Assembly: GCA_029210775.1 (NCBI GenBank)
Contig: JARGGI010000002.1
Location: 76,478 to 140,477 of the forward strand
Source of the DNA: Patescibacteria group bacterium
GTDB lineage: Bacteria > Patescibacteriota > Minisyncoccia > JAHIHE01 > JAGLIN01
Direction of reading: 5' to 3'
Length of the DNA stretch: 64,000 nt
Below the pieces are notes generated by a model, which was not told where the DNA came from, searched no databases, and saw only the letters and a program-made list of their open reading frames with translations. Below, piece by piece: positions 3,876 through 40,960 of this stretch (positions within the stretch are counted from its first letter, which is position 1; each line of letters opens with the position of its first letter). Position numbers and translations under genes: made by a program.

Positions 3876-4871
3876 CTAATTATCCTCAAAATGCTTCATC
3901 CAATCTTTTTTGTAATTTATATTAAACTGTTTATAAAACTTCACTTCACTCACCTGCGCACACCATTCGTCACCGAACATAAAAATTGATCTTTTGATAT
4001 CAGAAAAGTATTGATAATTCGTTAAAGGATTACATTTTGTGCTTAACAAAGCGTAGTTTAGTGAATTTATAAGAAATCCTCCGTCATGCCTAAAATTTTT
4101 CAAATGCTCTGATTCATGGACTAAAAGAGATGCAAAATAAATTTTATCCTCAAGAGAATCAAAAGGTTTAGAAAAAACTGGATCAATTTCAATATAATCT
4201 TCTGGCATATGCGCCATCGCAAGAACGGGCTTCATACTTCTTTGAGAGAAATAGAATTGATTTGTATTGTTTACAATTTTTTCATATGCCTTTGGATCAA
4301 CGATTCGAAGAAAATGAAGTGTTTCTGAAATATTTTCCATTCCCTGAGATGATCCTTGTGTGCCTTGTATAATTTTTTCCGCTTTAATATCAATTTTTTT
4401 CTCATTACTATAGTCTAAAATTTTCTGATGCGTAAAAACATCAATAAAACTGTTAAGCAATGTAAAAATTATAATTATGTTTATTGTAAAAAATATTATA
4501 AATGCCTTTTGAAAATCTCGCTCTCCTTGGATTATAAATTCAAGAAAATTAATTTCTTTTTCAATTATTTTTTGCCTTCTTTCAAAAGTTAATTTATTTT
4601 TTTTTGATAGATAATAAATAAAAAAACGAATTGGCAAATATATCAAAACGAAACTTAGTGCAAAAACTCCAACTATACTTGGAAAAAGTCCGAAATCAAA
4701 AATGAAAGAAAGTAAAAATGAAGAAAATTTATAAAACACTATTGTAAAAAAAAACACGAAAAAATAAATAAAGAGTTCAAAAATAAACTCCCTGAAATTT
4801 TCTTTTTTAAGTTTCAAAATTTTTTGCCAAATTATTGCAAAAATAAAAATGAGTATTAAATCACCGATCAT
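3876..4871 (-). CDS. polytopic membrane protein with HEXXH motif (putative novel Zn-metallopeptidase)
   Basis: 331 aa. Several N-terminal TM helices. C-terminal soluble region with LLVHESEHLKNFRHDGG (HExxH). No recognisable family beyond the motif. Confidence 0.4.
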   Translation of the reverse strand: MIGDLILIFIFAIIWQKILKLKKENFREFIFELFIYFFVFFFTIVFYKFSSFLLSFIFDFGLFPSIVGVFALSFVLIYLPIRFFIYYLSKKNKLTFERRQKIIEKEINFLEFIIQGERDFQKAFIIFFTINIIIIFTLLNSFIDVFTHQKILDYSNEKKIDIKAEKIIQGTQGSSQGMENISETLHFLRIVDPKAYEKIVNNTNQFYFSQRSMKPVLAMAHMPEDYIEIDPVFSKPFDSLEDKIYFASLLVHESEHLKNFRHDGGFLINSLNYALLSTKCNPLTNYQYFSDIKRSIFMFGDEWCAQVSEVKFYKQFNINYKKDWMKHFEDN

Positions 4872-4873
4872 AT

Positions 4874-5827
4874 TTATTCTTCATTAAAAATTTCATTATA
4901 ATTTTCTTCATCAACTATTTTTATTTCATTTTTCAAATTAATATAATTTCCTGATGGATATTTATCTCCTAGAGATTTTGAAAGAGGATTATAGCCATTT
5001 TTTATTTCATCAAAATCAGTATATCCATCAAAATCAGTATCGGGGTTATTTTTATCTGTATTTATCGTCATTTCTACAAGATCAGACAAGCCATCATTGT
5101 CACTGTCTTCCTTTCTGAGCTTTATCTCAGTCGCTTCTTCAACTATATTAGAAGTCTTATTGTTACTCTCTGTGACTAAACTGGATTCATCTTTTTTTTC
5201 AACAACATAATCGGTACAATTAGCCGTCTGTAGAAATTCCAATGCCCTTTGATTATCATATTTCCTAGGACTATTTACGATTAAAAAAACGATTGAGCCA
5301 TCGACCTCTCCACATCTTAAAGTTCCAACCAACCCCTCTACCTTTTTCTCTAAAAGTTTATACGACTCTGTTTCAATCATAGAATAATAAGCCTCTTGGT
5401 TTCCAAGAATAATTGTCTCAAAACTTTTCTCATTATAATTATCATCAATATATCTTTCAAGAAAATCATAATCTAAATTTTCACCTGTTGTAGATCCATA
5501 ATTTTTTATCATATATTTACTTTCAAATCCCGTTGGCATATGCAAAATTGAAATATCGTTGCCACTTTTTTCATCTTTGATTTCAACCGTTTCAAGTGTT
5601 ATACCATATATAATTTCTTTAGTTGCCTTCTTCAGGTTATAGTCACTATCTGGAAATTCCCAATTGCCAATTTTTTGAGCGTCCTCAAGAGATATTGTTT
5701 TTTCTGCTTGGATAGCTATTAGAAAAACAGAACTTCCAAATAAAACAACAAACAAGAATGAACCAACTATTACTATTTTATTAATTATCTTTTGATTGCT
5801 ATTTTGTATTTCTTTAAATTGATCCAT
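4874..5827 (-). CDS. secreted/anchored protein with C-terminal TSP3-like module
   Basis: 317 aa. N-terminal signal-anchor (IVIVGSFLFVVLFGSSVFLIAI). C-terminus DSDNDGLSDLVE...NPDTDFDGYTDFDEIKNGYNPLSKSLG shares the module found in 3330..3827 and 8599..9405. Confidence 0.5.
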   Translation of the reverse strand: MDQFKEIQNSNQKIINKIVIVGSFLFVVLFGSSVFLIAIQAEKTISLEDAQKIGNWEFPDSDYNLKKATKEIIYGITLETVEIKDEKSGNDISILHMPTGFESKYMIKNYGSTTGENLDYDFLERYIDDNYNEKSFETIILGNQEAYYSMIETESYKLLEKKVEGLVGTLRCGEVDGSIVFLIVNSPRKYDNQRALEFLQTANCTDYVVEKKDESSLVTESNNKTSNIVEEATEIKLRKEDSDNDGLSDLVEMTINTDKNNPDTDFDGYTDFDEIKNGYNPLSKSLGDKYPSGNYINLKNEIKIVDEENYNEIFNEE

Positions 5828-23826: not shown

Positions 23827-25074
23827 ATGTCAAAACTCAATTTAAACCTCACTTATTCCGCCATAGATTTATCTTCTCCCGAATTTGTAGAAAAGATTGA
23901 GAAAATAAAAAACACTCCCACACCAAAATTCGCGCAATATACCGCTGATTTGAAAAAATTAAAAGTGTTGAGAGAAAAATATCAAGATAAAAAAAATATT
24001 ATTGTGGAAGGAAATGGCGGGGCGATTTCAAATTTTCGAGGAATTTATAGCGCACTTGGAGAAATATATGACAAAAATGTGTATTTACTGGATACTGAAG
24101 ATCCGGCTTATATTCAAGAATTAAAAAAGAAATGTTCTCCTGAAAATACTCTCGTTATTTTAACGAGTAAATCAGGAACAAGGATTCAAGTTTTGGCAAA
24201 TTATTTCGCTTTTCAGAATTATCCAATTTTAATTATCACCGAAGATAATGACGGTGCGTTGAATCAAATTCGAAAAGCAAAAAATCTTGATGTTTCTTTT
24301 TATCCTAAAACTGATATAACTGACAGATACACAGGTCTTACAGAATCAGCCCTTACCACATCTGAGATTGTTGAAATTGATACTGAAAAAATGATTGAAG
24401 GAGGAAAAGATATGTATGCTTTGTGCAATATAAATTCAGACTTAAAAAACAATATAGCACTTCAAATCGCCTTGACTCTTGACAAACTTGAAAAAATAGG
24501 ATATACTGAACTGTTCTTATCAATCTATTCAAAAAAACTATTCGGTTTTTATAATCTCATTGTCCAGCTCTATCACGAAAGTGTTTGTAAAAAAGAAGTT
24601 GGACAAACAATTTATGGCGGTGAAGCGCCAGAAAACCAGCATCATACTCTGCAACGACTTATTTCTGGAAGAAAAAACTCGCTGGGATTTTTTATTACTG
24701 TCAAAAATTTTTCCAAAAATTCATTGAATAGACGCGAGCCCTTGCTTACACCAGAAACGATAGAAATTCCTGACGATTTGAAAAATATTAAGTGTAGAAA
24801 TATAACTTTGGAAACTTTAAACAATCTTTCTTTGCAAGATATAATCAAAGCCGAGTTCCAAGGAACCTGGCAAGATGTTGTTGATAATAATATCCCAGCC
24901 ATTCATCTTGAACTCACCGAACTTTCGCCATATTCAATTGGACAATTTATGGCCTTCTTTCATTATTTCACTTTCTACTCCGCCCTACTGCGTGGAGTCA
25001 ACCCCTGCGACCAACCGGGGGTAGAGAAGAGTAAAGAAAATATTTTTGGGATTGTGGAAGAAATTAGGAGATAA
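23827..25074 (+). CDS. glucose-6-phosphate isomerase-like protein (short bacterial/archaeal PGI type, SIS domains)
   Basis: 415 aa. IIVEGNGGAISNF resembles PGI signature 1. CDQPGVEKSKE resembles PGI signature 2 ([DN]-Q-x-G-V-E-x2-K). Confidence 0.5.
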   Translation: MSKLNLNLTYSAIDLSSPEFVEKIEKIKNTPTPKFAQYTADLKKLKVLREKYQDKKNIIVEGNGGAISNFRGIYSALGEIYDKNVYLLDTEDPAYIQELKKKCSPENTLVILTSKSGTRIQVLANYFAFQNYPILIITEDNDGALNQIRKAKNLDVSFYPKTDITDRYTGLTESALTTSEIVEIDTEKMIEGGKDMYALCNINSDLKNNIALQIALTLDKLEKIGYTELFLSIYSKKLFGFYNLIVQLYHESVCKKEVGQTIYGGEAPENQHHTLQRLISGRKNSLGFFITVKNFSKNSLNRREPLLTPETIEIPDDLKNIKCRNITLETLNNLSLQDIIKAEFQGTWQDVVDNNIPAIHLELTELSPYSIGQFMAFFHYFTFYSALLRGVNPCDQPGVEKSKENIFGIVEEIRR

Positions 25075-30494: not shown

Positions 30495-31481
30495 CTATCT
30501 CTTATACTTATCTTTTATTCGTATAGTATCATTAGGATGCGGAGTTGAATATTCTTGAAGTATTGTATTTTCCAATGCTAAAATTGTGTGTGGTGTACAA
30601 GGCTCAATTCTAATTGTCTTATTTTCTTTTATATTAACTTCTTTATCATCAAATTTAATTATCACCTCTCCAGAAGTTATATGCATTGTTTCATCCTTTT
30701 TTTCGTGTTTATGATGAGATGTTCCTTCATTTTTCATCAAATACAATTCTTTCGTTAAATATTTATCAGTTAATACAATAATTTTTTCATAACCCCATGG
30801 CTTATCTTCTTTGTTTAAATATTCCTCATTTACTCTTTGTAAATCCTTTATTGAATCAACTGATTGCCAAAAAACACCCTCCTTGTAATAATTCATCAAT
30901 CCAGATTTTGCAATTTCTGGAAAAGACAGTTCTTCGACAGAACCTTCTTTGTGTTTAGAAAAAATAGGTTTAATGTCTTTTGATATAATATATATTCCCG
31001 CATTAAGATAATGATCAAGTTTTGGCTTTTCTTTAAATCCGATAATTTTATTTCCCGATAATTCTGCTATACCATAAGGAGAAATGAGAGGTGTAATATA
31101 CATCAGCATCTTATTTTTATGTTGACTTATCATTTCTTTAATATTCACATCGCAAACTACATCGCCATTTCTAATTACATAATCATCGCTCTCAAAATTA
31201 TCAAGCAAATTATTAATAGCATATAAAGTTCCTTTGGGCTCATCTTCAATTAAATAATTAATTTCAACGCCATTCCATTTTTTTCCAAATCTTTCTTGAA
31301 TTTTTTCGTGCAGATATCCGCAAAGCAAAACTACCTGATTTATACCAGCATATTTAAGTTGTAAGATCTGCTTGTCTAAAATTGTATAATCTTTTTTAAT
31401 CTCCAAAAGCGGCTTGGGAATGCGATCAGTCAAAGGCCTCAGCCTCTTTCCAAATCCTCCGCATAAAATTGCTCCGATCAT
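30495..31481 (-). CDS. sugar-1-phosphate nucleotidyltransferase with C-terminal cupin domain (ManC/GMP-PMI-like architecture)
   Basis: N-terminal MIGAILCGGFGKRLRPLTDRIPKPLLEI (NTP_transferase G-loop). C-terminal EKPWGYEKIIVL...HHKHEKKDETMHITSGEVII is cupin-like. Confidence 0.7.
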   Translation of the reverse strand: MIGAILCGGFGKRLRPLTDRIPKPLLEIKKDYTILDKQILQLKYAGINQVVLLCGYLHEKIQERFGKKWNGVEINYLIEDEPKGTLYAINNLLDNFESDDYVIRNGDVVCDVNIKEMISQHKNKMLMYITPLISPYGIAELSGNKIIGFKEKPKLDHYLNAGIYIISKDIKPIFSKHKEGSVEELSFPEIAKSGLMNYYKEGVFWQSVDSIKDLQRVNEEYLNKEDKPWGYEKIIVLTDKYLTKELYLMKNEGTSHHKHEKKDETMHITSGEVIIKFDDKEVNIKENKTIRIEPCTPHTILALENTILQEYSTPHPNDTIRIKDKYKR

Positions 31482-31700
31482 AATAGTTTTGTTAGTTTTT
31501 AATTATCTATAAATATAAATTTAAAATATCAGATTATGGCAAGCAAGTCAATGATTTGACAAAATTAATTATTTAATTTATAATCCATTGTTATTTAGTT
31601 TAGCTTCAGAGAAGAATATAAGTGATGGGCTTTTATTTCTATCTATATCAAACTAAATGATAATATACTTAATTGGTTTAATGATTTAATTATTATAAAA

Positions 31701-33884
31701 ATGTCAGAAGGACTATCAGTTGTCATACCGACTTACAACAAGAAAAAAAGGATTCATCGTAAAAAGGTCTGTATTATTATACCGACATATAACGAAAAAG
31801 AAAATATTACTAAATTAATAGATGCTCTTTTAGATGTGTTTAAAGACATTAAAAATTTCGAGATGAGTATTTTAGTGGTTGATGACAATTCTCCTGACGG
31901 AACAGGAAAAATAGTTAAGAAATATTCTATTAGCCCCCCCCATTGTCAAATTCATTTATTGAGCGGAAAAAAAGAAGGTCTGGGAAAAGCTTATATTCGC
32001 GGATTTAATTATGCTATTAAAAAACTCAAAGCTGATTTTGTTTTTGAAATGGATGCTGATTTTTCTCATAATCCATCAGACATTCCAAGATTTTTGGAAG
32101 CCGTAGAAAATGGATATGATTTTGTTATCGGCTCAAGATATGTTGAAGGAGGATCTATTCCTAATAATTGGGGAATAGTCAGAAAACTAAATAGCAAAGT
32201 TGGAAATATTTTTGCCCGCTTTATTGCTGGATTGTATCCTATTAAGGATTGCACCGCTGGCTATCGTTGTATCTCTGCAAAGATTATAAAAAAAATAGAT
32301 TTAGAAAATCTAAATGCGACTGGATATTCTTTTTCAATGAATTTCCTTTATGAAGCTATCCGAATTAAGGCAAAAGTTAAAGAAATTCCAGTAGATTTTA
32401 TTGATCGTAAATTTGGCGAATCAAAAATTGGTTTTAGCGATATAAAAGAATTTATAATAAATTCTTTTATATTGCGTTTAAAAAAATCACAAAAGATATT
32501 ATTACTTATTATAACAAGCATATTTTTAGAATGCTTGTTATTTAGCATTGGAACTATTGGCTTAGAACAAATTAATTTTTCTAAACTACTAATAGATTTT
32601 TATATAGCTATCTCGCTTTTAATGTCTGTCCAATGTCTGATGAATCTCTATATGACTTTGTATATTTGGGAAACACCGGAGAGAATGGAAAGAAATAAAT
32701 CTCCTAAGAAATTTTTAAAACCTAAAAAATCATTTTCTATTTTGCTTCCAGCTCGCAATGAGGAACAAGTAATTGGCAATACAATTCAGGGACTTTATAA
32801 TATAAATTATCCTAAAAACCTGATGGAAATTATTGTTATTTGCGAAAAAACAGATACTGGGACAATTCATCAAATAAGACAAAAAATGAATCAGATAAAT
32901 GATGATATTATTAAATTAGTTATTTTTGATGATAAGCCAATTAACAAACCTCACGGATTAAATAAAGGACTTGCGATAGCTAAAAATGAAGTAATTACAA
33001 TTTATGATGCCGAAGATGAAGTAAACCCTGATATTTTTAATGTTATTAATACAGTTATGGCTCAGAACAAAAATGTCGGAATAATACAAAGTGGAGTTCA
33101 GCTAATGAATTACAGCTCAAAGTGGTTTTCTTCTCATAATGTTCTAGAATATTACTTCTGGTTCAAGTCAAGATTGCATTTTCACGCTGATGTTGGAATG
33201 GTGCCATTAGGCGGTAATTCCGTGTTTTTTAAACATAAAATATTAAAGGAAATTAATGGCTGGGATGAAAATTGTTTGACGGAAGATGCTGACATTGGAA
33301 TTCGTTTAAGCACCAAAGGAATAAAGACGATGGTTATTTATGATGATTTATACGCGACAAGAGAAGAAGCGCCTGATACTATAAAATCATTTATAAAACA
33401 GCGCACCCGCTGGGTTCAGGGTTTTCTGCAAGTTTTTCTAAAATTTGACTGGCTACAATATCCAAAATTATCTCAAAAGCTTTTAGCTGTTTATATCTTG
33501 CTTATTCCTTTTTTACAAGCCATAATGATACTAATGCTTCCAGTATCATTGTTTATGATGTTCAAATTTAAATTACCGATTTTATCAACCATAATTCTTA
33601 TTTTGCCAGTATATTTATTGTTTATTCAACTAACTATTAGCTTGATAGGATTATATGAATTTATTAAAATATACAAATTGCGTTTTAATTATTTAACTTT
33701 TTTGGTTTTTGTTATTACATTCTTTCCTTATCAATGGATGTTGGGAATTTCGGCATTAAGAGGATTATTAAGACAAATTGTTGGAAAAAATAATTGGGAA
33801 AAAACAAAACATTTGGGAGCTCATAGAAATATTTATTCTTCAGAGAAAACTATATTAGAAAAAACTTATGAAACTGCAAATTAA
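31701..33884 (+). CDS. tandem family-2 glycosyltransferase fusion: GtrB/DPM1-like domain + processive beta-glycan synthase-like domain + C-terminal TM helices
   Basis: Domain 1: VCIIIPTYNEKENI...VVDDNSPDGT...EMDADFSHNP (polyprenyl-phosphate hexose synthase type). Domain 2: SILLPARNEEQVI, IYDAEDE, TEDADIG (TED), QRTRW (QxxRW), then 4-5 TM helices. Confidence 0.75.
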   Translation: MSEGLSVVIPTYNKKKRIHRKKVCIIIPTYNEKENITKLIDALLDVFKDIKNFEMSILVVDDNSPDGTGKIVKKYSISPPHCQIHLLSGKKEGLGKAYIRGFNYAIKKLKADFVFEMDADFSHNPSDIPRFLEAVENGYDFVIGSRYVEGGSIPNNWGIVRKLNSKVGNIFARFIAGLYPIKDCTAGYRCISAKIIKKIDLENLNATGYSFSMNFLYEAIRIKAKVKEIPVDFIDRKFGESKIGFSDIKEFIINSFILRLKKSQKILLLIITSIFLECLLFSIGTIGLEQINFSKLLIDFYIAISLLMSVQCLMNLYMTLYIWETPERMERNKSPKKFLKPKKSFSILLPARNEEQVIGNTIQGLYNINYPKNLMEIIVICEKTDTGTIHQIRQKMNQINDDIIKLVIFDDKPINKPHGLNKGLAIAKNEVITIYDAEDEVNPDIFNVINTVMAQNKNVGIIQSGVQLMNYSSKWFSSHNVLEYYFWFKSRLHFHADVGMVPLGGNSVFFKHKILKEINGWDENCLTEDADIGIRLSTKGIKTMVIYDDLYATREEAPDTIKSFIKQRTRWVQGFLQVFLKFDWLQYPKLSQKLLAVYILLIPFLQAIMILMLPVSLFMMFKFKLPILSTIILILPVYLLFIQLTISLIGLYEFIKIYKLRFNYLTFLVFVITFFPYQWMLGISALRGLLRQIVGKNNWEKTKHLGAHRNIYSSEKTILEKTYETAN

Positions 33885-36489
33885 ACTAATCTTAAACAAC
33901 ATAAAAAACTTTATTATAAAAAGAAAGGAGTTTTTTGTTATTGTTATTTTATTGTTAATTTCAGGAATAGCTCACGGATATAATATGTTTAACTTTCCTT
34001 ACTACGCAAATGATGAAGGAACATATATGTCTCAAGCATGGGCAGTATTAAATCAAGGAACACTATCGCATTATACTTACTGGTATGACCATTCTCCTGC
34101 AGGATGGTTATTGATTGCTTTATGGACCAAACTAACAGGCGGGTTTTTTACTTTTGGCATATCAATAAATTCAGGCAGAGTTTTAATGCTGGTTTTGCAT
34201 TTGTTTTCAACTTTTTTTCTTTTTAAGATAGCCAAGAAAATGACTGGAAGTATATATGCCGGGTTTTTTTCTGCTTTGATTTTTGCCTTGTCTCCATTGG
34301 GAATTTATTTTCAAAGAAGAGTGCTACTTGATAATATTATGGTGTTTTGGCTTTTAATGTCACTACATTTAATTCTTTGTTTTAAGAAGAGATTATTAAT
34401 AATAGTTTTCAGCGCTATAACTTTTGCTTTATCAGTATTATCAAAAGAAAGTGGGATTTTTTTCTTGCCAGTAATGTTATATTTGGTTTTTATTCAAACT
34501 GATAAACAACACAAGCGATTAGGGCTTATTCTTTGGATTGTTTTATTCGGATTAATTTGTTCCTCATATCCTCTCTATGCCTTTTTAAAAGGAGAACTAT
34601 TTCCGATGGGTTCAATATTTGACTCAGGCGGAGAACATGTAAGTTTAATTGAAACTTTAATTTGGCAAGCTACAAGAGAAGGGGAAATGATTTTAGATTT
34701 GCCAAGACGATGGCTTAATGCTGATATACTTACGATTCTCTTAGGAATTATAACTATTTTTATAAACCTTTTAATAGGAATAAAGAAAAAATATTACATG
34801 ATTACTGCCTTATTGTCACTTTCTTATATTTTTTATTTAATAAGAGGAGGATTAGTATTAGAATTTTACATTATTGGTCTTATTCCATTTCTTGCTTTAA
34901 ATGTAGGATCGTTTGTTTATTTTTTAATAGGGAAAATAAACAATGTTAAATTAAGATATTTTCTTGTTTTGTTTTTGTCTTTGTTTTTTTCTTGTTATTT
35001 AATAAATGAGGGTAAAAGCATTAAAAGCTCTTTGACAGAAGAAGATAATTTATATCTATCAAACCAAACTATAAGTCAAATAGAAGCATTAAATTGGTCA
35101 AAAGCAAATATTACGAACGATAGAATGATAGTTATTGATAATTATTGTTATATAGACCTAAAAGATAGCTATGCAACCACTATTCCTTATAAAAAAGCTC
35201 ATTGGTATTGGAAGGTAGCAAAAGATCCCGAAATTAGAGATTCGTTTTTGAAAAATAACTGGCAAAACATTGATTATATCCTTTCAACTCCACAGATGGA
35301 AAATGATCTTAAAACTATGGATTCTAAACTTTTACAAGAGTCTTTTAGTTATTCAAGACCAATAAAAAAGTTTTGGTCAAATGGCTGGGGAGTAAATGTT
35401 TGGAAAATATATAATCCAAAACAAATCCTTGAAGAATCTTGGCAAAGCTACAAAACCCATTTTATAACTTCTGAAAATAAAATAACTGATCCTTACAATA
35501 ATAATTCCACCACATCCGAAGGGCAATCTTACGCTATGTTGCGAGCGGTTTGGATGGACGATAAAGAAACTTTTGACAATGTTCTTGGCTGGACAAATGA
35601 AAATCTAAAATTAACAAATAGCAATCTCTTTGCTTGGTCATGGATTCAAGATGATGATGGCAAATGGGGAATAAGAGACGAAGGCACAGCAACAGACGCT
35701 GATCAAGATATTGCCTTAGCGTTATTATTTGCTTACAAAAAATGGGATAATGCCACATATTTAGAACAAGCTAAAAAAATAATAAGCGACATTTGGGATT
35801 ACGAAGTTGTAGAAATTCAAAAAAAACATTATTTAACCGCTGGCAATTGGACATCAACAAAAAAAGATATTGTTATAAATCCTTCTTATTTAGCTCCTTA
35901 CGCTTATCGCATATTCGCGGAAATTGATCCTTCGCATAATTGGATGGAGTTAGTGAACACTTCTTACGATATTTTATATAACAGTTCCGAATCCTTATTG
36001 GGATATAATAAAAGCATTGGACTACCGCCGAATTGGTGCGCTATAAATCCCGATGAAGAAATAATATCCGCCGAGCACCTTGGAGATTTTTCGCGGGATT
36101 ATTCTTATGACGCAATTAGAACGCCATGGAGAATTGCTCTTGATTATCAATGGAATAAAGAACCACGCGCTAAAAAATATTTAGAATCCTTAGAATTTTT
36201 AAATAAAGAATGGCTGGAAAAGAAAAAAATATCAGCTTCTTATAGTCACGATGGCGAGCATTGGGAAAATTATGAATCAACTGCGTCTTATGGAACTAAT
36301 TTAGGATACTTTATTATTACTAATCCCGAAACAGCTCAAGAAATTTACGAAGAGAAAATATTAGGAAAATATTTTGAAGATGAAGAAAAAAGCTATTGGA
36401 ACGATCCGAAAAATTATTATGAACAGAACTGGGGATGGTTCGGAACGGCATTATACGCTGACAAATTGCCAAATCTTTGGAATCAATAA
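33868..36489 (+). CDS. fusion of a polytopic GT-C-like membrane domain (ArnT/PMT-like) with a C-terminal glycoside hydrolase family 8 domain
   Basis: 873 aa. ~11 TM helices in the first ~390 aa, with YYANDEGTYMSQAW in the first loop. The C-terminal domain carries ATDADQDIALALLFAYKKW, which matches the GH8 signature A-[ST]-D-[AG]-D-x2-[IM]-A-x-[SA]-[LIVM]-[LIVMG]-x-A-x3-[FW] at every position. Start overlaps the upstream gene by 17 nt. Confidence 0.7.
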   Translation: MKLQIKLILNNIKNFIIKRKEFFVIVILLLISGIAHGYNMFNFPYYANDEGTYMSQAWAVLNQGTLSHYTYWYDHSPAGWLLIALWTKLTGGFFTFGISINSGRVLMLVLHLFSTFFLFKIAKKMTGSIYAGFFSALIFALSPLGIYFQRRVLLDNIMVFWLLMSLHLILCFKKRLLIIVFSAITFALSVLSKESGIFFLPVMLYLVFIQTDKQHKRLGLILWIVLFGLICSSYPLYAFLKGELFPMGSIFDSGGEHVSLIETLIWQATREGEMILDLPRRWLNADILTILLGIITIFINLLIGIKKKYYMITALLSLSYIFYLIRGGLVLEFYIIGLIPFLALNVGSFVYFLIGKINNVKLRYFLVLFLSLFFSCYLINEGKSIKSSLTEEDNLYLSNQTISQIEALNWSKANITNDRMIVIDNYCYIDLKDSYATTIPYKKAHWYWKVAKDPEIRDSFLKNNWQNIDYILSTPQMENDLKTMDSKLLQESFSYSRPIKKFWSNGWGVNVWKIYNPKQILEESWQSYKTHFITSENKITDPYNNNSTTSEGQSYAMLRAVWMDDKETFDNVLGWTNENLKLTNSNLFAWSWIQDDDGKWGIRDEGTATDADQDIALALLFAYKKWDNATYLEQAKKIISDIWDYEVVEIQKKHYLTAGNWTSTKKDIVINPSYLAPYAYRIFAEIDPSHNWMELVNTSYDILYNSSESLLGYNKSIGLPPNWCAINPDEEIISAEHLGDFSRDYSYDAIRTPWRIALDYQWNKEPRAKKYLESLEFLNKEWLEKKKISASYSHDGEHWENYESTASYGTNLGYFIITNPETAQEIYEEKILGKYFEDEEKSYWNDPKNYYEQNWGWFGTALYADKLPNLWNQ

Positions 36490-36926
36490 AAATAAGCATT
36501 ATGAATCAACAAACATTGAGATTTACAAAATTTTGTATAGTTGGAGGAAGTGGAGTAATAGTTAATCTGGGACTTCTGTTTGTTCTTGTTGAATATTTTT
36601 ATTTAGGTGAAAATTTAGCATGGTTAATCGCAATACTGGCGTCAATACTTAATAATTTTCTATGGAACAATGCTTTCACTTACAATGATCGCAGATCTAA
36701 TTCTCACAATGAAACTATGCGAAGAATTGTTTATTATTATCTAATATCTTTAGGTGTTATGCTGTTTAATTTTGCAATTTATAAAATAGGAATATCTTGG
36801 GGTTTTTATTATATTTTGTCTGCCTTTATGGGAATATTTTTTTCCACTTTCTTAAATTTTGCGTTAATAAATAAATTGGTTTGGAATAATAGTTTGACAA
36901 AAGTTCAAATAAAAAATAGAACATAG
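36477..36926 (+). CDS. GtrA family membrane protein (polyprenyl-phosphate-sugar flippase-associated)
   Basis: 149 aa, 4 TM. FTKFCIVGGSGVIVNLGLLFVL...ILNNFLWNNAFTYND typical of GtrA. Overlaps the upstream gene by 13 nt. Confidence 0.7.
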   Translation: MESIKISIMNQQTLRFTKFCIVGGSGVIVNLGLLFVLVEYFYLGENLAWLIAILASILNNFLWNNAFTYNDRRSNSHNETMRRIVYYYLISLGVMLFNFAIYKIGISWGFYYILSAFMGIFFSTFLNFALINKLVWNNSLTKVQIKNRT

Positions 36927-36986
36927 AAAGATTAAAAAAAATAATACAGAAAAACACTTTTTGTATTAACACAATTAAACAAAAAA

Positions 36987-37016
36987 AATGATTTCTATTT
37001 AGGAATCATTTTTTTG
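36987..37016 (+). terminator. terminator after the GT2/GT-C/GtrA operon (possibly bidirectional with the convergent pmm gene)
   Basis: aatgatt-tctatttagg-aatcatt followed by ttttt. Confidence 0.5.
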
Positions 37017-37121
37017 TTGTTAATTTAATTCTCATAACTTAAATTGATAATAAAATATACTTTTAAATCTCAGATTATATTTATTAATCAACTTTTCTAT
37101 GGTTTTTTGTTTTTTCTAAAC

Positions 37122-38486
37122 CTACTTCTTAATAAACTCCGCCACTTCCTTCACTTTTTTCTCCATCAACTCCTTCGTCTTCGCTTCCAAATTTAATCTA
37201 ATCAAAGGCTCTGTATTTGACCCGCGCAAATTGAACCACAAATCGGAATATTCAACAGTTACGCCATCTAATTTATTTATCTCGCCGTCGCTAAATTTTT
37301 CCTCCGCTTCTTTTAATTTTTTCGCTACATTGGCCACTTTAAAATTTATCTCGCCCGAATGAAAATACTTTTTATATGACTGAACGATTTCAGAAAATGC
37401 CATATTTTTCCCAGAAAGAAACTCCAAAAATTTCGCCATTAAAATTACCGGCATTTCAAAAGTGCCGTAAGGTTTCTTATAAAAATAGTGCCCCGAAGAT
37501 TCTCCTCCAAAAATCGCCTCATTTTTTATCATTATTTCTTTGATCAAAGAATGTCCAACCGGCGTAACAATTGATTTTCCGCCCATCTCCTCAATCATAT
37601 CTTTGGTAATTCTTCCCGGCCTAATGTCATAAGCAACGGTCGCTCCTGAATTTTCAGCAAGCTCTATTTGCGCCATAATACCGCGCAATATTTCTTGCCT
37701 TAAAGAATTACCATTTTCGTCAACAAAAAAATACCGATCGGCATCGCCGTCTATTGCAACGCCAAAATCAGCTTTATTTTCAATGACTTTTTGCCTTAAC
37801 AGTTCAAGATTTTCTTCTTTAAGAGGATCCGCCTCGTGAGAAGGAAAATTTCCATCAAGTTTAAAATTAATTTTTATTAATTCCGCCGGAACTTTTTTAA
37901 AAAATTCTTCCATATCAAGAGCCCCCATAGAATTTGCCGCGTCAACAACTATTTTGAATTTTTTTATTTTTGTAATATCTATATCAGCCAGTTGATTGCT
38001 GACAAGTTCCTGTAAAATATTTTCTTTTTTAATAATTTCTCCCTCTTCTTTCCTTGCTCTAAAATCATTTTCTAAAATGATATTTTTAATTTCCATAATT
38101 CCCGTATCTTTGCTAATTGGCAATGAATTATTTTTTACCATTTTAAAACCATTATACTCTTTTGGATTATGAGATGCTGAAACCTGAATTCCTCCATCAT
38201 ATTTATAAAATCCGACAGCAAAATAAAATGTAGGCGTACTAACCAAACCAACATCAACCACATTTAAACCACTCTCAATTAATCCTCTAATTAGCTCTTT
38301 CTTTAAAGTTGGAGAAGAAAGGCGCATATCAGATCCAATAACAATATTTTTTGCTTTGGGATTATCTCTTAAAATAAAAGTTGCATATCCCCTGCCTAAA
38401 TTATAAGCAAACTCTTCATTAAGTTGAGTTGGATAAATTCCCCGAATATCATATGCTTTAAAAATTGATTCATTTATTTTATTCAT
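37122..38486 (-). CDS. phosphomannomutase/phosphoglucomutase
   Basis: 454 aa. FKAYDIRGIYP and active-site SASHNPKEYNGFK. Confidence 0.85.
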   Translation of the reverse strand: MNKINESIFKAYDIRGIYPTQLNEEFAYNLGRGYATFILRDNPKAKNIVIGSDMRLSSPTLKKELIRGLIESGLNVVDVGLVSTPTFYFAVGFYKYDGGIQVSASHNPKEYNGFKMVKNNSLPISKDTGIMEIKNIILENDFRARKEEGEIIKKENILQELVSNQLADIDITKIKKFKIVVDAANSMGALDMEEFFKKVPAELIKINFKLDGNFPSHEADPLKEENLELLRQKVIENKADFGVAIDGDADRYFFVDENGNSLRQEILRGIMAQIELAENSGATVAYDIRPGRITKDMIEEMGGKSIVTPVGHSLIKEIMIKNEAIFGGESSGHYFYKKPYGTFEMPVILMAKFLEFLSGKNMAFSEIVQSYKKYFHSGEINFKVANVAKKLKEAEEKFSDGEINKLDGVTVEYSDLWFNLRGSNTEPLIRLNLEAKTKELMEKKVKEVAEFIKK

Positions 38487-38489
38487 AAA

Positions 38490-39116
38490 TTAATCTCTTA
38501 AATTATTTATAATACCCTCAAGCTTATTTAAATCCTGAATTATATAATTCGTAAGTTCTGATTTTGTTTCTGTGTGTCCTCCTTGTGCTCTTATCATTTT
38601 CATTGCTATAACATTTGGTAATCTTTTTTTTACATCATCAATGGCTTTCGCTTTATCTTCTATAAAAACTATACTTCCATTATATTTTTTTTGAATTTCT
38701 TCCATATCATCAGCTTTATTTCTTGAAGTAATTATAATTTCACTAAAATATTTTGAAATTCCAGAATTTTCAATCTTTGTTTTTTGAAATTCAGTAGTTC
38801 CAAAAGATAATAGAATAAGTTTCTCTTTTTTAAAACTTGAAACAAAATCAAAAAAATCCCGATAAACGAATTCGTTTGATTTATTGATTATAAAATCAAT
38901 CTTTTTATTTATCTCTTCCTTATTAAAATTTTTTAAACTGTAAATTAAATCTACAAAAATATCTTTATCAAAATCACCTATTTTTTTCTTACACTGTCTA
39001 TAAACATCCCAAAATTGTTCTTCATTAAAACCCTCTATAAGAAATATTTTTAGAAATTCCTGCATTAATCCATATGTATTAAAAATTGTATCATCAAAAT
39101 CTAAAACTATTTTCAT
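38490..39116 (-). CDS. HAD-superfamily hydrolase-like protein (paralog 1)
   Basis: MKIVLDFDDTIFNT (DxDxT motif I). 208 aa. Tandem paralog of the next gene. Confidence 0.5.
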   Translation of the reverse strand: MKIVLDFDDTIFNTYGLMQEFLKIFLIEGFNEEQFWDVYRQCKKKIGDFDKDIFVDLIYSLKNFNKEEINKKIDFIINKSNEFVYRDFFDFVSSFKKEKLILLSFGTTEFQKTKIENSGISKYFSEIIITSRNKADDMEEIQKKYNGSIVFIEDKAKAIDDVKKRLPNVIAMKMIRAQGGHTETKSELTNYIIQDLNKLEGIINNLRD

Positions 39117-39751
39117 TATTTTTCTTTCGTTGTTAATTTTTTAATTATTTTTTCTGCTTGTGACAAATTTTTCACTACAAAATTTGTTTTCTCTGACTTT
39201 ATTATAGAATAGACCCCCCTTAGTCTTTCAATTTTTATCGTCACTATCCCTGTTAACAATTTTTCTGCTTGATCAATTTCAGAAGCCTTGTCATCTATAA
39301 AAAACAATCTTTCTATTGAATATTTTCTATAAATTGATTCCAGCTTTTCCATCTTATTATCGGTTATATATATCTTATCAAAAAAATTATTTACTTTTGA
39401 ATTTTTAATTTTCTTCTTTTGAAGAGATGTTAATCCAAATGAAAGAAGAATTAGGTCTTTTTTATTGAAATTATTAAAAAATTTATAAAAATCAGGATAG
39501 ATAAAATTTTCAGAATTTTTCAATAACGACGCGATTTCTGCTGTGACTCCCATTTTATTATCAAAATCAAGATTTATAAGCAAATCAATAATTTCTTTTT
39601 GATTAAAATCTGATTTTTTTTCTTTTGCTTTTTTGTAAATTTCTTTAAATTCAGCAGATTTATATCCAGCTTTCTTTAAGTTATTCAAAAGCGTTTGGGT
39701 TAGTTTATATGTATCAAAAATTGTATCATCAAACCCTATGACTATTTTCAT
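39116..39751 (-). CDS. HAD-superfamily hydrolase-like protein (paralog 2)
   Basis: MKIVIGFDDTIFDT. 211 aa. Collinear similarity to 38490..39116 along the whole length. Confidence 0.5.
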   Translation of the reverse strand: MKIVIGFDDTIFDTYKLTQTLLNNLKKAGYKSAEFKEIYKKAKEKKSDFNQKEIIDLLINLDFDNKMGVTAEIASLLKNSENFIYPDFYKFFNNFNKKDLILLSFGLTSLQKKKIKNSKVNNFFDKIYITDNKMEKLESIYRKYSIERLFFIDDKASEIDQAEKLLTGIVTIKIERLRGVYSIIKSEKTNFVVKNLSQAEKIIKKLTTKEK

Positions 39752-39760
39752 TGTTTTTTC

Positions 39761-40960
39761 TTAGTTTTTAGTTAAATCTGATTTAATTATATCTCCTGGT
39801 AATGTCCATACGTTGGGACTTATTTTTACTCCTGGATAAAATGAAGTATGAATCCCAGTTTTTACATTATCACCGATCACAACACCAAGTTTTTGTCTCC
39901 CAGAATCAATTAAATTTTCATTTAATTTAGATTTTATACTTTTCCAATCGTGACGTAAATTAGCCGTAATCGTCCCCGCTCCCAAATTACAATTATCACC
40001 AATGACAGAATCTCCGACATAAGAAAGATGTGCGACATTCGTGTTATCGCCAATAATAGAATTTTTTATTTCCACCGCTTGACCAATATGAGAATTATTT
40101 CCGATAACCGTAAAAGCACGTAAATAACAATTCGGACCGATTACGCAATTCTCACCAATCATCACAGGTCCTTCTAAGTAGCTTCCTGATTTAATAATTG
40201 TGTTTTTCCCAATAATAATTTTTCCCTTTAAAATTGCTCCCTTTTCAATGTTGGTTTTCTTATTTATTTTAGATTTTATTCTATTTAGAATAAATTCATT
40301 TGCTTCTATAATATTCCACGGATATGAAATGGGAAGCCAATAATCTTCCACTTGAACAATATTAATTTTTTCCTTTTTTGCCATCAAATTATATGCATCT
40401 GTTAGCTCATATTCCCCTCTTTCAGATATACTTATTTCATCAAGAACATTAAAAATATTTTTTGAAAAAACAAAACAACCAATATTTACTAAATCTGAAA
40501 CAAATTTTTTTGGTTTTTCAACTACTTCACAAAAAAAATTATTTTTTGTCTTTAAAACTCCAAAACATTCAGGATTATTAACTTTCTGAGCAAGTATCGC
40601 ATTTTTATGCTTTAATAAGTTTTTTATATCTTTTCTACTATAAAGATCATCCCCAAACATTAAAATAAAATTGCTTTTAATAAACTTTTTAACTAACTTC
40701 AAGGCATCTGCGTTTCCTAATTGCTCATTTTGAATTATATAGTTAATTTTAATTTTTCCAAACTTATTTCCTAAAAAGTTTTCAATCATATCAGCTTTAT
40801 ATCCAACTACAATAAACACTTCATCTACAAAACTTTCTAGTTGCTTCAGGCTATGTTCAATAATGGTTTTGTTCGCCACTTTCAAAAGAGGCTTTGGTTT
40901 GGTTAAAGTTAAAGGATATGTCCTAGTTGACTTTCCAGCTGCTAAAATTACTGCTTGCAT
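39761..40960 (-). CDS. sugar-1-phosphate nucleotidyltransferase with C-terminal left-handed beta-helix (hexapeptide) domain (GlmU/archaeal-type)
   Basis: MQAVILAAGKSTRTYPLTLTKPKPLL. C-terminal hexapeptide repeats (IGKNTIIKSGSYLEGPVMIGENCVIGPNCYLRAFTVIGNNSHIG...). Confidence 0.75.
   Translation of the reverse strand: MQAVILAAGKSTRTYPLTLTKPKPLLKVANKTIIEHSLKQLESFVDEVFIVVGYKADMIENFLGNKFGKIKINYIIQNEQLGNADALKLVKKFIKSNFILMFGDDLYSRKDIKNLLKHKNAILAQKVNNPECFGVLKTKNNFFCEVVEKPKKFVSDLVNIGCFVFSKNIFNVLDEISISERGEYELTDAYNLMAKKEKINIVQVEDYWLPISYPWNIIEANEFILNRIKSKINKKTNIEKGAILKGKIIIGKNTIIKSGSYLEGPVMIGENCVIGPNCYLRAFTVIGNNSHIGQAVEIKNSIIGDNTNVAHLSYVGDSVIGDNCNLGAGTITANLRHDWKSIKSKLNENLIDSGRQKLGVVIGDNVKTGIHTSFYPGVKISPNVWTLPGDIIKSDLTKN

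Follow-up and report, generated by a model that had tools for sequence, protein, structure and literature searches.

A stretch of 64,000 nucleotides (the window) from a Patescibacteria group bacterium (assembly GCA_029210775.1, contig JARGGI010000002.1, positions 76,478 to 140,477 of the forward strand) carries a three-gene operon whose second gene encodes a GT-C membrane glycosyltransferase fused to a glycoside hydrolase of family 8 (GH8). The first gene is itself a fusion of two glycosyltransferases of family 2 (GT2), one resembling polyprenyl-phosphate hexose synthases and the other a processive polymer synthase, and the third encodes a protein of the GtrA family. We consider it an even bet (a probability of roughly 0.5) that the product of gene 2 is a two-enzyme protein working at the outer face of the cytoplasmic membrane, where the GT-C domain adds a side-chain sugar to the polymer of the neighboring synthase and the GH8 domain trims that polymer, so that the operon makes and tailors a single surface or extracellular beta-glycan. 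The operon joins two known schemes, the BcsA/BcsZ-type pairing of a synthase with a hydrolase and three-component glycosylation outside the cytoplasm. A preliminary description of gene 2, made without database searches, had recognized both domains, the number of helices, the outward orientation of the hydrolase and the link to the synthase, all of which stand; its view of the membrane part as a "synthase-type" domain and its suggestion of transglycosylation find no support. It did not take in the donor-synthase half of gene 1 or the GtrA gene downstream.

Gene 2 (33868..36489, + strand) encodes 873 amino acids from an ATG start and overlaps the end of gene 1 by 17 nucleotides. Its GT-C membrane domain (residues 1-382; 33868..35013, +), delimited by Pfam, hydropathy, structural modeling, Foldseek and conservation, comprises 11 transmembrane helices according to both hydropathy and the helices of the AlphaFold model, the number that had been estimated previously, with the N-terminus inside. 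After the last helix comes a small alpha/beta linker domain (residues 383-519; 35014..35424, +), defined by the model and the homolog alignment and predicted to lie outside the membrane, followed by the GH8 (alpha/alpha)6 barrel (residues 520-873; 35425..36486, +), defined by Pfam and Foldseek. The linker domain is kept by all homologs, including those that lack GH8, and in their alignment Q404, W448, K449 and D453 are nearly invariant. The N-terminus, rich in Lys and Arg, falls on the same side of the membrane as the short loops KKMTG, CFKKR, QTDKQHKR, KKKYYM and IGKINNVK, and the positive-inside rule assigns this side to the cytoplasm; residues 383-873, and with them the whole GH8 domain, are therefore predicted to be extracytoplasmic, as are the first outer loop (residues 43-98) and a large loop (residues 241-286). 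Public databases hold the exact gene 2 protein, from a Patescibacteria metagenome-assembled genome, together with more than 100 independent full-length homologs (42-77% identical) that share the two-domain architecture, so the fusion is real and recurrent rather than an artifact of assembly. Their annotations are generic ("glycosyl hydrolase family 8", "glycosyltransferase family 39 protein" or "endo-1,4-beta-D-glucanase Y/ArnT-like glycosyltransferase").

In the GH8 half, Pfam Glyco_hydro_8 matches residues 522-788 (E 3.3e-49), and the signature ATDADQDIALALLFAYKKW (residues 608-626; 35689..35745, +), on which the preliminary assignment had been based, fits the PROSITE pattern, being its sole match in the six-frame translation of the window. 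The nearest solved structure by sequence is CelA of C. thermocellum (E 6e-28), with BcsZ-type endoglucanases also near, and the relatives rank by bits as cellulases (100), lichenase (68), chitosanase (58) and xylanases (41). In the full-length AlphaFold model, with a predicted local distance difference test score (pLDDT) of 88.9, the best Foldseek match of the GH8 part is E. coli BcsZ (target TM-score 0.86, root-mean-square deviation 2.5 Å), the target TM-scores to BcsZ, CelA and CMCax ranging from 0.79 to 0.86. Aligned with BcsZ from the E. coli K-12 genome, residues E551, D610, Y674, D748 and R751 correspond to BcsZ E55, D116, Y182, D243 and R246, among which a structural study of BcsZ describes the two catalytic residues and those that bind the -1 sugar (bioRxiv 10.64898/2026.08.24.745826). 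The glutamate expected upstream of the signature is thus E551 (35518..35520, +), the catalytic acid (also CelA E95 in the alignments), which is Glu in 116 of 120 homologs; the catalytic base D748 (36109..36111, +) lies in the motif YSYDAIR together with R751, and D610 is the aspartate of the signature itself. The loss of catalytic residues that the preliminary description had allowed for is not seen, as E551, D610 and D748 are all intact, and with the full hydrolytic residue set of BcsZ the copy in the window looks active. Barrel fold, profile match, catalytic acid Glu, signature Asp and base Asp all place the domain in GH8. Against the NCBIfam equivalog model for BcsZ (NF008305) it scores 136.2 bits, below the cut-off of 299, so that it resembles BcsZ without being its ortholog by the NCBI criterion.

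The same residues vary among relatives. The base position is Asp in 69 of the 120 close homologs and Asn in the other 51, the catalytic acid is replaced by Gln in a few of them, and more distant Patescibacteria have kept the fused GH8 domain though most of its catalytic residues are lost. At one related locus (L028), a degenerate fused copy is followed by an intact stand-alone GH8 gene. Because degenerate fused copies are retained, the GH8 domain probably also has a binding or guiding role. Such a role has a precedent in the hydrolase PssZ of Listeria monocytogenes, a member of GH126, which has the same fold class as GH8: its E72Q mutant still binds the polymer with a Kd of 50 nM (PMC13492145).

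For the membrane half, the broad Pfam model PMT_2 matches residues 74-232 at E 1.5e-9, its 38.7 bits exceeding the cut-off of 26.1, while Pfam PMT (PF02366) reaches 21.8 bits, under its gathering cut-off of 22.7, which by that measure leaves the protein outside the GT39 PMT family. An NCBIfam search with this half gave no match, and residues 1-515 had no sequence match in the PDB even at E 10; therefore, a comparison of folds was needed. We compared an AlphaFold model of residues 1-518 (pLDDT 77.6), made with truncated database proteins, with the PDB by Foldseek. Down to an E-value of about 0.2 its matches were exclusively GT-C enzymes, among them AglB, STT3, ArnT, PglB, DPY19, Pmt4, Pmt1/2, AftB, AftD and ALG3 (E 3e-7 to 7e-3, query TM-scores of about 0.5). 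Judging from this model, the N-terminal part has the GT-C fold (11 helices, within the 8-13 of the class, and a fold match), in keeping with the ArnT/PMT-like character ascribed to it before; with TM-scores near 0.5, the ranking of the matches says little about the substrate. GT-C enzymes use lipid-phosphate-linked sugars at the outer face of the membrane, and the synthase is the neighboring GT2 protein, which is why "synthase-type" does not describe this domain.

The distribution of conserved residues points to an enzyme. In the alignment of 120 homologs, D49-E50, Y69-H75, R150, D155, N156, K193, E194, E243, H257, R270 and D286 are invariant or nearly so, and all of them lie in predicted outer loops or at outer helix ends. 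The acidic pair D49-E50 (34012..34017, +) follows the first helix; it belongs to the first outer loop, sits where GT-C enzymes have their catalytic motif, and is present in every one of the 118 homologs aligned there. Mean identity is 0.62-1.0 in the outer loops versus 0.20-0.55 in the cytoplasmic loops, where no polar residue is invariant, and no stretch of the protein is better conserved than the first outer loop (0.80, compared with 0.59 for the GH8 domain). Such conservation on the outer face is what a functioning GT-C active site should show and a passive anchor should not. By analogy with known systems, the presence of a DPMS-like synthase and of GtrA in the operon suggests that the donor would be a polyprenyl-phosphate-linked sugar.

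Gene 1 (31701..33884, +; 727 amino acids) was identified as a double GT2 enzyme by Pfam, NCBIfam and PDB sequence matches. Its N-terminal domain (residues 20-284; 31758..32552, +), matched by Pfam Glycos_transf_2 at residues 24-199, is polyprenyl-phosphate hexose synthase-like (DPMS/GtrB/ArnC class) and is closest to the Dol-P-Man synthase of P. furiosus (PDB 5mlz, E 2.6e-33), the matches to ArnC (5e-14) and GtrB (6e-6) being much weaker. Two transmembrane helices recognized by hydropathy (residues 266-320; 32496..32660, +) separate it from the second GT2 domain, and because their number is even both domains should be cytoplasmic. The second domain (residues 339-690; 32715..33770, +) is a membrane-embedded synthase with about four C-terminal transmembrane helices by hydropathy. 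It matches BcsA (E 7e-9) and contains the motifs DAED (residue 436), TED (527) and QRTRW (567), the last confirming the adjacent QxxRW synthase of the preliminary description. A processive GT2 domain with DxD, TED and QxxRW motifs and predicted channel-forming helices is what characterizes a synthase-dependent pathway. Its NCBIfam matches, with PgaC_IcaA (2.3e-35) and CelA (8e-17), are both far below the respective cut-offs. Neither a receptor for cyclic di-GMP (PilZ or similar) nor a co-subunit of the BcsB/PgaD type was seen, either in this operon or at those homologous loci that were examined.

Gene 3 (36501..36926, +) encodes a four-helix protein of the GtrA family, a putative polyprenyl-phosphate sugar flippase (Pfam GtrA_DPMS_TM, E 4.7e-21; helices by hydropathy). 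Its ATG at 36501 lies 11 nucleotides past the gene 2 stop, the mechanically called reading frame beginning at a TTG at 36477, so that the operon is spaced by a 17-nucleotide overlap between genes 1 and 2 and by 11 nucleotides between genes 2 and 3. One operon therefore holds a DPMS-like GT2 domain (gene 1), a GtrA protein (gene 3) and a GT-C enzyme (gene 2), and the first two would supply and flip the lipid-linked donor that the third needs.

The association of these genes extends well beyond the window. A scan with GT-C peptide patterns, taking one genome per species, retrieved at least 586 relatives, and we mapped six domains by tblastn on 83 loci among the matches listed, 77 of which had enough upstream flank. 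Since they were found by GT-C peptide patterns alone, these loci are unbiased as to the synthase. A synthase gene stands directly upstream of the GT-C gene, often overlapping it, in 73 of the 77, and somewhere in the locus in 76; this near-universal synteny across three phyla supports the functional link to the QxxRW synthase proposed earlier. GH8 is fused to GT-C in 43 of the related loci, encoded separately 1-3 kb downstream in nine, and absent from the rest. A DPMS-like gene lies within 6 kb in 39 of the 77 loci, and at no fewer than 15 it adjoins the synthase or is fused with it, the DPMS-like–synthase fusion of gene 1 recurring in at least 15 related loci; GtrA is present in ten. One locus (L003) encodes a triple fusion with GtrA in the middle, between the DPMS-like domain and the synthase. 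Fusions of the DPMS-like GT2 domain to the synthase, of the same domain to GtrA and synthase (L003), and of GT-C to GH8 tie five modules together. A single-chain fusion of synthase and GT-C was looked for among the longer relatives and none was found, the extra parts being DUF4388, LysM, DUF4397 and one transposase; the transposase fusion (P0229) was set aside as an artifact of assembly or gene calling.

The carriers comprise many classes of Patescibacteria, the Anaerolineae, Dehalococcoidia and Dictyobacter among the Chloroflexota, and Mycobacterium, Microbacterium, Arthrobacter, Curtobacterium, Pseudonocardiaceae and Micromonosporaceae among the Actinomycetota. In Mycobacterium sp. URHB0044, synthase (535 amino acids), GT-C (895 amino acids, PMT_2 plus DUF4397) and GH8 (387 amino acids) are separate genes in the same order, overlapping by a few bases, and Microbacterium likewise has separate genes in this order, with a DPMS-like gene downstream. 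A profile search of 1.84 billion representatives found 682 clusters at E ≤1e-30, and about half of the best 150 of these 682 carry GH8. In gene 2 of the window, therefore, the second and third genes of an old and conserved module are joined into one.

Several related loci depart from this arrangement. In two (L018, 3413-8655; L026, 2957-8604), the whole GT-C–GH8 gene is tandemly duplicated behind one synthase gene, and the GH8 domain of the first copy in L026 is degenerate. An exception to the gene order is L086 (7001-12378), where the GT2 gene comes after, not before, the GT-C–GH8 gene, is chitin-synthase-like, and is followed by a gene for a CE4 polysaccharide deacetylase; these neighbors hint at a chitosan-like polymer in that lineage. 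In L003, a gene on the opposite strand (4346-5416) for a protein of GH6 (Pfam Glyco_hydro_6), a cellulase family, adjoins the synthase/GT-C–GH8 pair. Accessory variants of the GT-C core (L071, 5965-8652; P0137, P0162 and P0163) include DUF4397 in Mycobacterium, LysM placed C-terminal to GH8 (P0137), and a cytoplasmic DUF4388 at the N-terminus (P0162 and P0163).

In the mechanism that we favor, the C-terminal half of gene 1 would polymerize a nucleotide sugar in the cytoplasm and push the chain out through its own membrane channel, while the N-terminal half would load a hexose, probably mannose or glucose, onto polyprenyl phosphate. GtrA would flip the lipid-linked sugar to the outer leaflet, where the GT-C domain would transfer it to the emerging polymer as a side branch. 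The GH8 domain, tethered at the exit site, would cut the backbone and in this way, like BcsZ in the case of cellulose, control chain length, release the polymer or remove chains that have stalled. It is from the synteny and the fusions that we infer the polymer to be the acceptor of the GT-C domain. The cross-fusions, in which one chain unites donor synthase and polymer synthase and another unites transferase and polymer hydrolase, argue that all five activities meet at one site. As for the polymer itself, our leading guess is a cellulose-like beta-1,4-glucan, favored by the similarity of the GH8 domain and by the GH6 neighbor in L003; a hexosamine polymer is a second candidate, given that the synthase score leans toward PgaC and that L086 has a chitin-synthase-like GT2 and a CE4 deacetylase. 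The side-chain sugar would be the one handled by the DPMS-like domain.

Several observations weigh against this mechanism. The low frequency of DPMS-like genes (39 of 77 loci) and of GtrA (10 of 77) indicates that the genes of the donor pathway often lie elsewhere, or that some systems do without it. Many relatives have Asn as the GH8 base or lack the catalytic set altogether, and hydrolysis is therefore not the universally conserved role of the domain. At the top of the structural matches of the GT-C part stand oligosaccharyltransferases, enzymes that transfer glycans whole. The synthase scores higher with the PgaC model (beta-1,6-GlcNAc, a polymer of N-acetylglucosamine) than with the cellulose synthase models, while GH8 enzymes cut beta-1,4 bonds, two indications that point to different polymers. 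To our knowledge, three-component glycosylation has not been described for any synthase-dependent polymer, and the members of this family are known from their sequences alone.

The comparison with known systems shows how the operon combines their features. As in the BcsA/BcsZ systems of E. coli and Komagataeibacter, a processive QxxRW GT2 synthase stands beside an extracytoplasmic GH8 endoglucanase, and the GH8 domain is structurally closest to BcsZ (0.86), with all of its active-site residues. In contrast, the operon has no BcsB, BcsC or PilZ domain, its GH8 is fused to a GT-C membrane enzyme where BcsZ is soluble and periplasmic, its score with the BcsZ model is 136 bits against a cut-off of 299, and its synthase remains far below the cellulose synthase cut-offs. 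The host organism, as a member of the Patescibacteria, is probably a monoderm.

The acceptors of known three-component systems are glycans that depend on Wzx/Wzy or ABC transporters, or teichoic acids. Such systems modify glycans outside the cytoplasm by glycosylation and consist of an enzyme that makes a polyprenyl-phosphate sugar, a flippase and a transferase of the GT-C type (PMC11127046). Like GtrA/GtrB/GtrC of Shigella and Salmonella O antigens, CsbB/GtcA/YfhO and the system described in PMC11127046, the window operon has a GT2 donor synthase, a GtrA flippase and a GT-C enzyme. It differs in that the donor synthase is fused to a polymer synthase and the GT-C enzyme to a polymer hydrolase, and in that the acceptor is predicted here from the gene context.

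A further parallel is the Pss system of Listeria monocytogenes, in which a beta-1,4 ManNAc (N-acetylmannosamine) backbone with alpha-1,6-Gal side chains is made by the synthase PssC and cut by the hydrolase PssZ, with synthesis stimulated by cyclic di-GMP (PMC13492145). This too is a system of a monoderm with a membrane-bound, outward-facing (alpha/alpha)6 hydrolase, and the binding E-to-Q mutant of PssZ parallels the natural E551Q and D748N variants among gene 2 homologs. We considered PssZ as a GH8 analog and rejected it, the literature placing it in GH126. Unlike the window operon, Pss has no described GT-C enzyme, and its stimulation by cyclic di-GMP contrasts with the operon, where no domain binding this messenger was seen. 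Finally, the operon recalls the polyprenyl-phosphate-mannose pathways (archaeal and eukaryotic DPMS with PMT; mycobacterial Ppm1 with GT-C) in the closeness of the N-terminal half of gene 1 to the P. furiosus enzyme and in the matches of its GT-C part to PMT_2 and, below the cut-off, to PMT. Actinomycetota that carry the module also use polyprenyl-phosphate mannose with GT-C enzymes, according to PMC3485146. However, the GT-C of the window has no sequence-level match to a solved GT-C enzyme, its partner is a polymer synthase and not a lipoglycan or protein pathway, and its sugar is a prediction.

The alternative that fares best, which we nevertheless regard as unlikely, is that the finished chain is transferred as a whole: the DPMS-like domain would prime a lipid, the synthase would extend and export the chain, and the GT-C domain, acting like an oligosaccharyltransferase or ligase, would move it onto protein, cell wall or membrane lipid, with GH8 setting its length. 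AglB, STT3 and PglB, the top structural matches of the GT-C part, would fit this, although TM-scores of about 0.5 cannot separate the subclasses of GT-C, and the WWDYG peptide-binding motif of oligosaccharyltransferases is not seen in the GT-C part. The fusion of the DPMS-like domain to the N-terminus of the synthase, in the window and in at least 15 loci, is what a priming enzyme might show, and the coupling of GT-C and synthase genes persists where no DPMS-like gene is near. In some relatives LysM or DUF4397 replaces or follows GH8, a hint of contact with the cell wall. On the other hand, synthases of the BcsA type elongate a free chain at its non-reducing end, so that here a reducing end anchored to lipid would need to pass through the membrane. 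Moreover, the operon includes a flippase of the GtrA type, which is tied to lipid-linked single sugars.

It is also improbable that the domains serve separate targets, with the GT-C domain glycosylating proteins or another envelope glycan (PMT- or GtrC-type), GH8 breaking down cellulose, chitosan or host polysaccharide outside the cell, either as food or for attachment, and the synthase only loosely related to either. The Pfam matches are indeed to the protein-mannosyltransferase families PMT and PMT_2, the former falling short of its cut-off (21.8 versus 22.7 bits), and candidate genes for GDP-mannose supply (NTP_transferase with cupin, PMM/PGM) are located next door in the window. Relatives are publicly annotated as "endo-1,4-beta-D-glucanase", and the enrichment of Microgenomates and Chloroflexi on cellulose particles (PMC7031533) could be taken in the same sense. 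Yet unrelated functions would not be expected to keep synthase and GT-C genes adjacent in 73 of 77 loci from three phyla, often with overlapping stop and start codons, nor to preserve the order synthase, GT-C, GH8 as separate genes in Actinomycetota, and a membrane-tethered, frequently inactivated GH8 would make a poor feeding enzyme.

More doubtful still is a non-catalytic GT-C domain, serving as membrane anchor and synthase partner in the place of BcsB or PgaD and holding GH8 at the channel exit. The operons examined show no BcsB, PgaD or PilZ partner, and the GT-C gene is the one constant neighbor of the synthase gene. However, an anchor alone would not need a first outer loop that is the most conserved of the protein, or the invariant D49, E50, R150, D155, N156, K193, E194 and H257 on the outer face at typical GT-C active-site positions, or a dedicated donor pathway in the operon. 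The proposal of the preliminary description, a synthase-type membrane domain with a hydrolase acting as transglycosylase on the polymer, got the domain pair and the synthase neighbor right but is hardly credible otherwise, given that the GT-C fold uses lipid-linked donors and is no processive nucleotide-sugar synthase, and that GH8 enzymes are inverting hydrolases, forming no glycosyl-enzyme intermediate for transglycosylation, with catalytic acid and base here both in place for hydrolysis.

The operon is flanked by candidate regulatory signals. In the 220-nucleotide gap upstream of gene 1, a promoter-like TTGACA-17-TATAAT (31556..31584, +) has 12 of 12 consensus matches; this is a consensus match only, and promoter-like sites in the region overall are no more numerous than in shuffled sequences. 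Between the convergent GtrA (+) and phosphomannomutase/phosphoglucomutase (PMM/PGM, -) genes lies a terminator-like A-run, hairpin and U-run (36978..37022, no strand assigned; -14.2 kcal/mol, z -5.7), none of 200 shuffles being as stable. This hairpin, which a simple terminator scan missed because its stem is AT-rich, closes the operon and could act as a terminator in both directions. Sugar-precursor genes surround the operon (23827-25074, 30495-31481 and 37122-40960), encoding glucose-6-phosphate isomerase, a sugar-1-phosphate nucleotidyltransferase with a cupin tail, PMM/PGM, two HAD-family hydrolases and an archaeal-type bifunctional GlmU-like enzyme. The window thus carries genes for UDP-GlcNAc-type as well as mannose/glucose-type precursors; this neighborhood is not conserved in the related loci examined.

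Our full-text literature searches found no paper on the GT-C–GH8 fusion or on the operon. Neither domain family is new, nor are the principles of BcsA/BcsZ and of three-component glycosylation, and the fusion itself is present in databases under generic names. What appears to be undescribed is that, in three phyla, a synthase-dependent pathway is obligately paired with a GT-C enzyme, and that this enzyme is fused to the hydrolase of the pathway. A broader proposal, to which we would give somewhat less than even odds, is that synthase and GT-C form an unrecognized class of synthase-dependent polysaccharide machinery in Patescibacteria, Chloroflexota and Actinomycetota, in which a GT-C enzyme using lipid-phosphate sugars is the obligate outer-face partner of the synthase and GH8 doubles as a module that holds the polymer. 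If true, it would give the first example of a synthase-made polymer that undergoes three-component glycosylation or is anchored by a GT-C enzyme. If the GT-C domain does act on the product of the synthase, glycosylation from lipid-linked sugars at the outer face would be extended to synthase-dependent polymers. The same genes occur separately in culturable Microbacterium, Arthrobacter and environmental Mycobacterium, where these proposals are testable by ordinary genetics.

The genomes of Patescibacteria are very small, and life as episymbionts makes these bacteria dependent on their cell surface. Since many of these small genomes keep such a large operon, it likely builds an important part of that surface. 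Single-cell sorting found Microgenomates and Chloroflexi among the taxa enriched on fluorescent cellulose particles (PMC7031533), and we may speculate that a surface-tethered GH8 could contribute to such binding. The GH8 genes of these lineages should not count as a sign that cellulose is degraded when metabolism is reconstructed from metagenomes. If the broader proposal above is true, Patescibacteria "endoglucanases" that have been counted as cellulose-degrading capacity would instead be biosynthetic accessories.

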